From the sequence record PV340542: a stretch of DNA of 40,128 nt; one strand, written 5' to 3'. Under the pieces are notes generated by a model, which had not been told where the DNA came from, searched no databases, and worked only from the letters and a program-made list of their open reading frames with translations. This stretch comes from Escherichia phage mEp506. Positions within the stretch are counted from its first letter, which is position 1. Each line of letters starts with the position of its first letter. Both the position numbers and the translations under genes were made by a program. This document shows, piece after piece, positions 5,358 to 8,345 of the stretch.

Positions 5358-5372
5358 GCGCTTTGTCAGCGC
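5358..5372 (-). promoter_or_regulatory. nutL: nutL boxB hairpin (P22 type)
   Basis: Minus-strand GCGCTGACAAAGCGC, identical to the P22-type boxB as recalled, upstream of N. Confidence 0.7.
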
Positions 5373-5439
5373 CGTAGATTCATATTCGAATCGTTGTATA
5401 TTCACCGCCCTGGTGAGTAGTGCGTCATGCTGATGGGTA

Positions 5440-5490
5440 AACTTTATCGGAATGATAAATTAATGGCAATAGCAAAATGATAAATTCTTT
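5440..5490 (-). promoter_or_regulatory. pL / oL operator region
   Basis: Palindromic TTTATCggaatGATAAA (5444-5460) and a second ATGATAAATT copy (5476-5486), the same half-site motif as in oR; candidate -35 TTGCCA / -10 TAAAGT on the minus strand. Confidence 0.45.
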
Positions 5491-5661
5491 TGATTTTCAA
5501 ATATCGTATTGATTCTTATGGTGTTTTATTTTGTTGTAGGAATTCGACAGGATAAATAAAGAGATTTGAGGGAGATCTGGATTGCGTGGTTTAGCAAGTT
5601 GTATCAATCAGTTTTTCAATAAATACAATGAGTTATGTTTTTTTAGGTGGGCGAACGTGAG

Positions 5662-5691
5662 GCAAAGAAAACCCGGCGCGGTGGCCGGGTT
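5662..5691 (-). terminator. rho-independent terminator ending the hicA-hicB-secB-like operon
   Basis: Minus sense AACCCGGC-CACCGC-GCCGGGTT followed by TTTTCTTTG, immediately after the stop at 5697. Confidence 0.65.
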
Positions 5692-5696
5692 GGAGA

Positions 5697-6122
5697 TTAT
5701 TTTCTAGATGATGTTGGGGACCAAGGTAACGTTATAGTATCTAACACTGTGTTTTTGAACATATTTTCAAAAACTGTTTTTGTACATACATATACATAAT
5801 TTTCAAAAAACCAAGCATTTTCATTATAAAAATCCTCAGTTACTTCTTCATCGAGGTCACACTCAAATGTTAGTGTCAAGGTAGCCTCTGCCTTGAACAA
5901 TACATCCTCACCATCATCAAAATCTTTTTTATCGCGAGGGAAACCAGTTATCGATGGCTTAACTTCAATAAAGAGCCAATTTCCATCTTCATCTTTTTGA
6001 GGAACAACGTGATGCTCAGAAAATTTTAAGCTATATTTTCCGCCTTCAGAATTATCACTGTCGTCGATAAAAAGGGAAGAACCCTCGAGATCAAATCCCT
6101 TAAAGCGAATTTTATCAAGCAT
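5697..6122 (-). CDS. SecB-like candidate chaperone (141 aa); third gene of the HicAB operon
   Basis: Start ATG overlaps the hicB stop (TGATG). Strand/helix pattern (KIRFKGFDLEG; WLFIEVKPSITGF; VLFKAEATLTLTFECD; AWFFENYVYVCTKTVFENMF; LDTITLPW) resembles E. coli SecB by eye. Functional call is tentative. Confidence 0.45.
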   Translation of the reverse strand: MLDKIRFKGFDLEGSSLFIDDSDNSEGGKYSLKFSEHHVVPQKDEDGNWLFIEVKPSITGFPRDKKDFDDGEDVLFKAEATLTLTFECDLDEEVTEDFYNENAWFFENYVYVCTKTVFENMFKNTVLDTITLPWSPTSSRK

Positions 6123-6580
6123 CAATGTGGCACTCCGTTGTCTACTGAAACTTCCCAATAGGTCTCTTCTGTACGTCTACGGGATGAGAAGAAAGTAACT
6201 TCTCTAACATCCCTCGGTTTTTCAAAGTGGTAGTGAACCTCTTTTTTCCCATTAACTGACTCACTGACAGCCTGTTTTACATAATCGTTTAAAGTCATAT
6301 TCTTAGCTTTAGCAGCTAAATATGCTTTTTTATGCAGGGATTCACCTATCCGGATGTTAAACGAACCACTCATTGTCTTATCTGGAGATTTTCCTATCTC
6401 TTCACAAGTGGAGAGGTAATCGTCCACGGCCTCCTCAAAGGCTGCACGGAGTTCTGCAACCGTTGCACCCTCATAAGTGACGAGATCATTTATACATTCG
6501 AGTTTTCCATGCATCACCCCATCTTCAAATGAAATGCTGGAGCTACCATAGTAACCTTTGTATTTCATCAAGTTATTCAT
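6122..6580 (-). CDS. hicB: HicB-family antitoxin with about 45-aa C-terminal extension
   Basis: N-terminal MKYKGYYGSSSISFEDGVMHGKLECINDLVTYEGATVAELRAAFEEAVDDYL and SGSFNIRIGESLHKKAYLAAKAKNMTLNDYVKQAV are typical of HicB; start overlaps the hicA stop. Confidence 0.8.
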   Translation of the reverse strand: MNNLMKYKGYYGSSSISFEDGVMHGKLECINDLVTYEGATVAELRAAFEEAVDDYLSTCEEIGKSPDKTMSGSFNIRIGESLHKKAYLAAKAKNMTLNDYVKQAVSESVNGKKEVHYHFEKPRDVREVTFFSSRRRTEETYWEVSVDNGVPH

Positions 6581-6827
6581 GATCATCAATCTCATCTAAC
6601 AGCTGTTTAACTTCTTCCAAGACGTACCTTTTGAGGGTGTTTTCAGGATGAGGCTCATGAAAAATGACCAATCTATCAACACGTTGGTTGTAAAATTTAC
6701 GGCCAGAACCTCGTTTAGCATTCAAAAGCTTGAAGCCATACTGGTTCATGAGAGTAACGAACTCATCCCAAGTAAAATTTTTGGGTAAGCCGTCTAACTT
6801 TGACTTTAGCTTTTCCTTTCTTCCCAC
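6573..6827 (-). CDS. hicA: HicA-family toxin (YcfA-like), GTG start
   Basis: GFKLLNAKRGSGRKFYNQRVDRLVIFHEPHPENTLKRYVLEEVKQLL fits the HicA pattern (GS-x-R-K-F ... HP); toxin-first order as in hicAB; AGAGGA RBS upstream. Confidence 0.7.
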   Translation of the reverse strand: MGRKEKLKSKLDGLPKNFTWDEFVTLMNQYGFKLLNAKRGSGRKFYNQRVDRLVIFHEPHPENTLKRYVLEEVKQLLDEIDDHE

Positions 6828-6855
6828 GAAGGATACATCCTCTGTTAAAGGTAGT

Positions 6856-6875
6856 GCAACTGAAATCTAGTTGCA
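6856..6875. promoter_or_regulatory. palindrome gcaactgaaatctagttgc upstream of hicA (candidate HicB operator)
   Basis: Perfect 6-bp inverted repeat with a 7-nt spacer in the hicA 5' region. Confidence 0.3.
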
Positions 6876-6986
6876 AGCTATGCTATCTATAGACAAAATG
6901 TTTCATTGTTATATCAGAAGATACCCGATCTGTTTCACCTTCAACTACTATAATTTGTTATAAGCTATCAACCGGTGGAACTGCGA

Positions 6987-7086
6987 ATTAGCCGCTGGGT
7001 GTTGCGTATCCATCGATGATAAACCATGCCATAAACCCCATAGCTACGATGAACACCAAGATCGGAAACACTATACCAATTCTCAT
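6987..7086 (-). CDS. small hydrophobic peptide (32 aa, single predicted TM helix)
   Basis: ORF MRIGIVFPILVFIVAMGFMAWFIIDGYATPSG between cI and hicA; weak RBS; speculative. Confidence 0.25.
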
Positions 7087-7241
7087 GATTTTATCCCTGT
7101 CTACCCATGCTTCCTGGGCACCAGCGGCTCGTTACTCGGCATCACCCTTAATCCGCCGCCCCATGTGTTTGTTGTGATCCGTTGCTGGCCTTAACCAAAC
7201 GTCTCTTCAGGCCACTGGCTATCAGCTATGTGACGATGAAG

Positions 7242-7946
7242 TCACGAACTTTTCAGCCACTCCCTTGCCTCGATGTCATCCAGATGGCGAGATTGCTTCA
7301 GAATACCAGCCACATACTCCACCTTTGCTACTTGATGATAAGGCAACGTTATTGGCCTATGGTCCTGGTTGATGCTTGTAAACTGGTATTCTCCGTCTCT
7401 GTCATAGCCAAGAACTTTGATCATGTTGTGTCCTTCAACGGTTCTGACAAACACCTCATCACCCGGGAATACTTTGGTGTTAGGCTCAATGAGTACATAT
7501 TCTCCTGATTTTATTCTAGGCCACATGCTGTCTCCTTTCACACGAAGGCCAAAGGCATCTGGATCATCGCTATAAATTTTGAGCCACCCATCGCGCTCTT
7601 CGGTCATCTCGATGGCACCATCAACACCAAGAATTGCCTCACCAACCACGCGCACTAACCCTTTTCTTACCTGACCGACAAAAGTTAAAGAATCTGAGCA
7701 TGATGCAATTGGTGTTACATCATGTACCAAATCAAGCCACCCATTAGGTAACCCAAGTGCGGCTTCAAATTTTCTTGCTAGTTTATCCCCTATGTTTCGA
7801 GTGCTTTTTTCACCGGAGACTTGCGTGAGTTGAGAAGGGCTAACCCCAAGCTTATCGGCAAAGCTTGCATTAGTGTTACCCGCGATTTTTTTATGCTCAT
7901 CTAGCAAAAACGCCAGATTCGATTTGCGAATATCTTTGTTTTCCAT
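7242..7946 (-). CDS. cI: CI-type prophage repressor (N-terminal HTH, C-terminal LexA-like S24 peptidase domain)
   Basis: HTH-like segment (ASFADKLGVSPSQLTQV) and S24 motif GDSMWPRIKSGEYVLIEP; divergent from cro across an operator-rich region. Confidence 0.9.
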   Translation of the reverse strand: MENKDIRKSNLAFLLDEHKKIAGNTNASFADKLGVSPSQLTQVSGEKSTRNIGDKLARKFEAALGLPNGWLDLVHDVTPIASCSDSLTFVGQVRKGLVRVVGEAILGVDGAIEMTEERDGWLKIYSDDPDAFGLRVKGDSMWPRIKSGEYVLIEPNTKVFPGDEVFVRTVEGHNMIKVLGYDRDGEYQFTSINQDHRPITLPYHQVAKVEYVAGILKQSRHLDDIEAREWLKSS

Positions 7947-8059
7947 CTCACAATTTTCCCTCTATTTAGCAAATGGATAAATACGCAATATGATAAATTT
8001 ACATTGCGGTTGATTTATCAAAATGGTAAAGTTATTCTGTATGATAAACGGAGGCACTA
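7947..8059. promoter_or_regulatory. oR / pR / pRM divergent control region
   Basis: Repeated ATGATAAAT-type half-sites (7973-7983, 7989-8000, 8010-8026, 8041-8051); candidate pR -35 TTGATT (8010-8015) and -10 TATTCT (8033-8038); GGAGG RBS before cro. Confidence 0.55.
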
Positions 8060-8292
8060 ATGAGTAATGAACTACTACGCTGGCGAAAAGAGGCTTCTAG
8101 TGAGGAATGGAAGCGACTCGCCGCATTAGCGAAAACTTCAGTTGGCTATCTTGACCAGATTGCATATGGATTTCGAAGAGCTTCCCTGATAAAGCGAATG
8201 CAATCGAAGAAGCTACTCGTAATTTCACGGCCTATAAACCCGTGAAAAAGGAAAACCTGGTGTTCGTATCGCGTAGAGCATCAGCAGCATAA
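8060..8292 (+). CDS. cro: Cro-like HTH regulator, apparently frameshifted (annotated ORF 8060..8245)
   Basis: HTH-like ...LAALAKTSVGYLDQIAYGFRRAS; the plausible continuation PDKANAIEEATRNFTAYKPVKKENLVFVSRRASAA lies in another frame ending at 8292, split at a CCC run (8184-8186). Confidence 0.55.
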
Positions 8293-8299
8293 GTAACAC

Positions 8300-8345
8300 C
8301 GCTCTTTTCACAATGGACATTCGTCCTACGTCGCTGACAAAGCGA
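8300..8345 (+). promoter_or_regulatory. nutR: nutR: boxA (CGCTCTTTT, 8300-8308) and boxB (TCGCTGACAAAGCGA, 8331-8345)
   Basis: boxA consensus-like sequence followed by a P22-type boxB hairpin between cro and cII. Confidence 0.65.

Follow-up and report, generated by a model that had tools for sequence, protein, structure and literature searches.

Two 15-nt hairpin sequences in the record PV340542 of Escherichia phage mEp506, which over its whole length of 40,128 nt forms the window analysed here, are very probably the boxB elements of the nutL and nutR sites of an N antitermination system of the H-19B/HK97 class, carried by a temperate coliphage or prophage of the HK97 group. A preliminary description had put the two hairpins at 5358–5372 on the minus strand and 8331–8345 on the plus strand, and both lie at those positions. 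The N/nut module itself is already known: it has been dissected in H-19B, is annotated in phages of the HK97 group and is present in hundreds of E. coli prophages.

The nut sites and their N protein

The elements assigned to the module, with the genes and signals that adjoin it, are the following.

5358–5372, minus strand: nutL boxB, DNA GCGCTGACAAAGCGC, RNA GCGCUGACAAAGCGC; 5-bp stem, GACAA loop
5377–5392, minus strand: nutL spacer hairpin GAUUC-GAAUAU-GAAUC, from the minimum-free-energy fold
5416–5424, minus strand: weak boxA-like element of nutL, CGCACUACU; position transferred from the annotation of EF120460
5441–5469, minus strand: PL-like promoter (TTGCCA, 17 nt, TAAAGT) from a consensus scan; predicted start near 5434; overlaps the operators OL1 and OL2
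4809–5192, minus strand: N antitermination protein, 127 aa, H-19B/HK97 class; Pfam N_peptide PF25694, E 2e-15
4054–4111, minus strand: two intrinsic-terminator-like hairpins between ral and cIII, from a terminator scan
8300–8308, plus strand: nutR boxA, CGCUCUUUU; identical in HK97 and mEp234, one mismatch in H-19B
8315–8326, plus strand: nutR spacer hairpin GGAC-AUUC-GUCC, from the predicted fold; inside the 22-nt spacer between boxA and boxB
8331–8345, plus strand: nutR boxB, DNA TCGCTGACAAAGCGA, RNA UCGCUGACAAAGCGA; 5-bp stem, GACAA loop
8431–8727, plus strand: cII, 98 aa; Pfam Phage_CII, E 4e-33; 100% identical to HK97 cII

At up to two mismatches, the two boxB sequences are the sole matches to their 15-mer family in the 40 kb, where 0.15 would be expected by chance; two or more matches occurred in 1 of 100 shuffles. 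The predicted RNA folds have energies of −8.5 kcal/mol (nutL) and −6.4 kcal/mol (nutR), with a U-A pair closing the GACAA pentaloop in each, and the outermost stem pair goes from G-C in nutL to U-A in nutR, with both sides altered. The nutL copy is located between PL and N, 180 nt upstream of N, and the nutR copy between cro and cII, both on the transcribed strand. These N/nut positions, the placement relative to PL/OL, cro and cII, and the logic that joins an arginine-rich motif (ARM), boxB, boxA and Nus factors are those of lambda, whereas lambda has other boxB sequences (GCCCUGAAGAAGGGC in nutL, GCCCUGAAAAAGGGC in nutR), short spacers and an N that matches the window's marginally (E 0.034).

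Both 15-mers occur exactly in HK97 and, at the nutL and nutR positions, in H-19B, and the mEp234 record EF120460 annotates the equivalent elements as putative nutL and nutR boxA and boxB. Relatives of N were found on 355 contigs in IMG/VR. In the best 80 of these 355, whose N is 99–100% identical and which underlie all boxB and inter-nut figures given here, the exact nutL boxB is present in 79 loci and the exact nutR boxB in 73, always alongside an N of this class.

N is identical to H-19B N at 124 of 127 residues and to the N proteins of HK97 and mEp234 at 98.4%. In H-19B N, the ARM is 12-RSRRRER-18, mutants defective in nut binding map to R3, S11, R15 and R18 (PMC3526286), and L108 belongs to the C-terminal domain that binds RNA polymerase (PMC4499122). 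The same ARM and all five of these residues are present in the N of the window. A PDB sequence search with N returned nothing relevant, so N represents a class without a solved relative detectable by sequence. Rfam at gathering thresholds, run over the whole window, gave no nut or boxB family; its matches were confined to two tRNAs and the thermoregulator of lambda cIII.

The identity extends to the RNA around the hairpins. The PL leader, from its start through boxB, and all of nutR are essentially identical in the window, H-19B, HK97 and mEp234. The nutR spacer hairpin is the same in all three relatives; that of nutL is the same in H-19B and HK97, while mEp234 alters loop bases and keeps the stem. 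A dyad symmetry in the spacer of the H-19B nut sites (Neely & Friedman 2000, as cited in PMC3526286) is found at both sites of the window, where the predicted folds hold GAUUC/GAAUC in nutL and GGAC/GUCC in nutR. The H-19B nutR is described as having two hairpins, with N and NusA protecting the spacer and boxB, and as overlapping the Rho-dependent terminator tR1 (PMC3526286). Given that N, boxB, leader and nutR are shared with H-19B and HK97, the module can be equated with the experimentally characterised N–nut system of the H-19B/HK97 class.

Among whole phages, H-19B (AF034975) resembles the window in N, cI, both boxB elements, the nutL leader, the nutR spacer hairpin and operator type. It differs in having less leader sequence between boxB and the start codon of N, in other cargo between OL and cI (no hicAB), in an intact cro of 77 aa, in lambda-type P and ren, in a different Q, and in carrying stx1 and 21-type lysis genes. 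HK97 (where N is gp47), mEp234 and HK106 (EF120460, EF120461, PV340539) have N at 98.4% and boxB, spacers, nutR boxA and cII identical or nearly so, and mEp234 additionally shares, at about 100%, the hicA/hicB/third-open-reading-frame cargo and the O/P replication genes. Operators, cI and cro are of lambda type in these three phages, unlike the window, which is of H-19B type at about 5436–5570 and 7221–8286.

Taken over from these systems, the mechanism would run as follows. The nut RNAs would form part of the PL transcript (start near 5434) and of the PR transcript (through cro); N would bind the GACAA-loop boxB hairpin with its arginine-rich N-terminus, NusA would bind the spacer, and the C-terminal domain of N would contact RNA polymerase. 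The polymerase so modified would resist the Rho-dependent tR1 after nutR, beyond which cII is the first gene, and the terminators downstream of N, where the hairpins at 4054–4111 presumably need read-through by N-modified polymerase, by analogy with the tL terminators of lambda. As a result, cIII, kil, erf, xis and int would be expressed on the leftward side, and cII, O, P, the nin genes and Q on the rightward side. The present analysis establishes sequence identity, position, folding and linkage; that N binds, needs NusA and allows read-through of tR1 is known from published work on H-19B, and we infer that the same operates in the window.

Three points weigh against the assignment. First, canonical boxA, CGCUCUU(U)A, is not present in nutL, which has the element CGCACUACU 43 nt upstream of boxB. 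H-19B N reportedly depends on NusA and has a reduced need, or none, for NusB, S10 or boxA, and the spacer hairpin is said to draw the flanking nut elements together; the missing canonical boxA is consistent with such boxA independence. Second, boxB is invariant in the IMG/VR relatives, so that evidence from covariation is confined to the outermost stem pair, which differs between nutL and nutR. Third, cro is frameshifted and int, S, K and J are disrupted in this sequence (see below); even with N and nut intact, the element could thus be defective as a phage.

Likeness to P22

Both hairpins had been described as P22-type boxB. The nutL copy is identical to the P22 nutL boxB at 15 of 15 positions; the nutR copy shares with P22 the GACAA loop only, the P22 nutR boxB, ACCGCCGACAACGCGGT, having a different stem. 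The accompanying observation that N has a P22-like C-terminus is borne out: its last 30 residues, which include L108, are 67% identical to those of P22 gp24 (E 1.7e-9). The ARM regions (FKGNSRSRRRERLKAKALANG in N, FAGNAKTRRHERRRKLAIERD in P22) agree at 8 of 21 positions. N is not a full-length orthologue of gp24, since the likeness is confined to the ARM and the C-terminal 30 residues; its central part of about 75 residues has no P22 counterpart and is 27 residues longer. An F-x-G-N motif before the ARM is shared as well, and together with the C-terminus it argues for homology of N and gp24 at both functional ends. Read from the alignments, the likeness to P22 is best taken as old, distant homology of N at its RNA-binding and polymerase-binding ends, not as recent exchange.

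The complex of P22 gp24 with boxB was solved by nuclear magnetic resonance (PDB 1A4T; Cai et al. 1998, as cited in PMC12550061), and the peptide there makes contact with the C of the GACAA pentaloop, which is looped out (PMC12550061). In P22 this contact is made by a His and an Arg, which align with Arg16 and Lys20 of the window's N. Full-text literature searches found no paper stating boxB identity between P22 and H-19B/HK97; GenBank annotations suggest that the identity had been noticed before.

Could unrelated N proteins have converged on an optimal, GNRA-like GACAA hairpin? Just 15 nt are in common with P22 nutL, their stem is a simple GC-rich palindrome, and the ARM core SRRRER resembles TRRRER of lambda about as much as TRRHER of P22, all of which convergence would accommodate. 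However, N and gp24 also share the F-x-G-N motif and the C-terminus, the latter at an E value of 1.7e-9 where lambda N reaches 0.034, and we regard convergence as unlikely.

It is less probable still that the N/nut region is a P22-type module gained by recombination with a P22-like phage in an otherwise lambda-type genome, as the preliminary description implied. The nutL boxB, the C-terminus and the ARM of N are the features that such an origin would explain. No P22 nucleotide similarity was detected in 4544–11400, however, either at E 1e-10 or in 200-bp tiles, and homology to P22 at the nucleotide level is limited to the 15-mer itself. The central residues of N and the stem of nutR also depart from P22. 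P22 spacers are of about 10 nt and free of hairpins, against 22 nt with a hairpin at nutR, and both P22 sites have a canonical boxA, whereas the P22-style CGCUCUUUA about 10 nt upstream of boxB was found at neither nut site of the window, nutL lacking this boxA sequence. The module is instead 97–100% identical to H-19B, HK97 and Stx1 (Shiga toxin 1) phages; in N, boxB, spacers and nutR boxA it agrees with H-19B, HK97 and mEp234. The lambda-type genome fares no better, with an Int of HK022 type, an Rz of HK97/P22 type and structural genes of HK97 type. The alignments led us to reject a direct P22 origin.

Least probable of all, and rejected on position and statistics, is the reading of the hairpins as palindromes that arose by chance or that serve some other purpose, for example as terminators or as DNA sites bound by a protein: the generic motif does arise by chance, as in two further perfect 5-bp GACAA hairpins within structural genes at 31603 (plus) and 22090 (minus), but the 15-mer family occurs twice against an expectation of 0.15, both times in a canonical position on the transcribed strand, no T-run follows either boxB hairpin, and both footprints and function are documented for the nutR of H-19B, which is identical (PMC3526286).

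A separate observation concerns the relatives. About 1.2 kb past nutR, the rightward strand of 15 of the 80 (loci L014 and L016 among them) has a third perfect GACAA hairpin, TCCGCGACAAGTGGA. The window lacks it; in those 15 phages it may be an additional site of the nut kind.

Immunity core and cargo slot

The region between the two nut sites holds the immunity functions and a cargo operon. Operators were assigned with the annotation of GQ499358 (ST2-8624, an "H-19B-like" immunity record) as reference.

5443–5459, 5468–5484 and 5500–5516, plus strand: OL1, OL2 and OL3; 0 mismatches to the GQ499358 sites
5670–5691, minus strand: Timm-like intrinsic terminator of the cI–cargo operon, from a terminator scan
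5697–6827, minus strand: cargo in the rexAB slot, comprising hicA (6573–6827), hicB (6122–6595) and a third open reading frame (5697–6158)
7242–7946, minus strand: cI repressor, 234 aa, with an S24 peptidase C-terminal domain (Pfam Peptidase_S24)
7965–7981, 7989–8005, 8014–8030 and 8032–8048, plus strand: OR3, OR2, OR1 and OR0; 0, 0, 0 and 2 mismatches to GQ499358
8060–8291, plus strand: cro, H-19B type; 1-nt deletion in a C-run at about 8184, open frame ending at 8245

By sequence, the immunity type is that of H-19B/ST2-8624: cI is identical to H-19B cI at 234 of 234 residues, and OL1–3 and OR1–3 match the reference sites. The cargo lies downstream of cI and upstream of the Timm-like terminator, which is 83% similar to the lambda region adjoining rexB and falls in a region equivalent to that where EF120460 annotates Timm. 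Pfam recognises HicA_toxin and HicB in the cargo and finds no match for the third open reading frame. In 200-bp tiles the cargo is about 100% identical to that of mEp234, whose immunity type differs; PV340539 annotates HicA, HicB and HicC, and the third frame is called "HicC chaperone" in mEp234. Between hicA and cI there is also a 32-codon hydrophobic frame (6988–7086, minus), for which RefSeq, on an E. coli prophage equivalent, gives a small membrane protein of the YoaK family.

Told apart at 90% identity and coverage, at least 33 distinct configurations exist between the nut sites among the best 80 of the 355 IMG/VR loci. Similarity breaks recur at 5433–5436, the predicted PL start, at about 7669 inside cI, and at 8280–8287, just before nutR boxA. 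On this evidence the N/nut elements are the conserved frame, and the immunity core (OL/PL and cI–OR–cro) and the cargo slot are the parts that are swapped. Module exchange had been placed at both the N/nut and the immunity region; it applies to the immunity core and the cargo, and the N/nut elements form the stable flank. The 81 bp at 7140–7220, 100% identical to HK97, seem to be a conserved linker below cI.

The H-19B-type immunity accompanies about ten different cargo inserts in the IMG/VR loci, and mEp234 pairs hicAB with lambda-type immunity. None of the best 80 of the 355 loci pairs H-19B immunity with hicAB. The collections searched contain no other example of the window's combination, which is nonetheless routine in kind.

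Another possible site of exchange lies inside N. The last 60–70 nt of the gene (4809–4879), coding for part of the C-terminus that binds polymerase, are 93–100% identical in phages whose N is otherwise different (VT1-Sakai, mEp213, ECP1 and lambda-like ev phages), which suggests a further recombination linker.

A wider hypothesis joins the likeness to P22 to this arrangement. It is that N proteins of the H-19B/HK97 class and gp24 recognise the same boxB, identical at nutL and with the same fold of GACAA loop and looped-out C, and that the nut sites are fixed recombination linkers bounding an immunity-plus-cargo cassette. We put it forward tentatively, as a possibility that falls short of an even chance. 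If it is true, Stx/HK97-like prophages of E. coli and P22-like phages of Salmonella could cross-activate each other's early operons, the cassette breakpoints would be the PL transcript start and the cro/nutR boundary, and the window would be an unsampled product combining H-19B immunity with mEp234 hicAB.

The mosaic genome and its apparent lesions

The whole window was compared in 200-bp tiles with lambda, P22, HK97, HK022, mEp234 and H-19B, and the tiles were read together with tables of high-scoring segment pairs. The best relative switches sharply along the window.

1–1509: attP, int, xis; HK022, 98.5%
1900–3900: abc2, erf, kil; HK97, HK022, H-19B
3932–4543: start of cIII, ral; lambda, 96–100%, with lambda ea10 absent
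4544–4810: no matching relative
4811–5435: N, nutL; HK97, mEp234, H-19B, and Stx1 phages at 99.1%
5436–5570: PL/OL; H-19B
5572–7220: Timm terminator, third open reading frame, hicB, hicA, 32-codon frame; mEp234, about 100%
7221–8286: cI, OR, cro; H-19B, 95–100%
8287–8800: nutR, cII; HK97, 98–100%
8800–11200: O, P; mEp234, about 100%, and HK022 from 9388
11224–15084: nin region, roi, rusA, Q; HK97, 96.6%, with Q 99.5% identical to lambda
15085–15485: insertion carrying two tRNA genes
15486–19125: S, R, Rz and beyond; HK97, HK022, with R 98.7% identical to lambda and Rz 97% to HK97
20001–40128: HK97-type head and lambda-like tail genes; HK542, 97.9% over 89%

Mosaicism as such, which had been proposed on the understanding that one close relative covering all modules would speak against it, stands: neither the phage collection nor any of 5,426 complete E. 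coli genomes contains a record that reaches 80% of window 1–20000 or of the inter-nut region. The proposal that seven genes are near-identical to lambda holds for xis (97%), ral (100%), ninB (98%), Q and R, and fails for int and Rz. Int is 100% identical to HK022 Int over residues 14–357 and 74% to lambda, and Rz is closest to HK97 (97%), followed by P22 (90%) and lambda (58%). Q, R, ninB, ral and xis are equally close to HK97 or HK022 wherever those phages have them. On these comparisons the backbone is that of the HK97 group (Hendrixvirinae), not of lambda. The main use of the present work is a corrected module map, namely an HK97-group phage with an HK022-type integrase, H-19B immunity, the hicAB genes of mEp234, and Q and endolysin of lambda/HK97 type. 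The map illustrates the known mosaicism of lambdoid phages without extending it, and has little import beyond correct annotation.

Aligned with near-identical relatives, the sequence carries a number of lesions.

int, about 1108: one base lost in a C-run of the coding strand, CCCCC to CCCC; frameshift
cro, about 8184: C4 to C3; 61 aa instead of 77, aligned to H-19B cro
S holin (15657–15896), about 15877: 14-bp deletion relative to lambda, HK97, HK022 and mEp234; 79 aa instead of 107
About 19078: G-run that falls short of each of the three relatives, by 2, 3 and 5 bases
About 19149: T-run one base shorter
About 24314, intergenic: G-run one base shorter
Tail gene K (31473–32182), about 31772: G5 to G4; frameshift
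Tail gene J (33613–37160), about 37033: G6 to G5; the last ~42 residues frameshifted

The isolated single-base differences are all deletions in homopolymers, in coding and non-coding sequence alike, which suggests that they are sequencing under-calls and not decay. Two findings run counter to this. The exact 61-aa Cro recurs in a three-member cluster, found in Logan assemblies only, on seven contigs from independent assemblies, and the S deletion is not associated with a homopolymer, so that it may be a real lysis defect. The exact 79-aa S product is not in a collection of 15 billion proteins.

Three further features of the mosaic deserve mention. The cIII thermoregulator (Rfam Lambda_thermo, 3979–4037, minus strand, 88.5 bits) sits in the lambda-like patch that is without ea10. 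Genes for tRNA Asn-GTT and Thr-TGT are located at 15259–15333 and 15339–15414 on the plus strand, within an insertion of about 400 bp between Q/pR′ and S that is absent from lambda, HK97, HK022 and mEp234; the Q-to-S position is where Stx phages carry tRNAs and toxin genes. Finally, both ends of the window (1–5 and 39737–40128) lie in an HK022-type attP, position 40128 corresponding to about HK022 20654 and position 1 to about HK022 20650, which suggests that the window is a single, entire prophage opened at the core of its attachment site.

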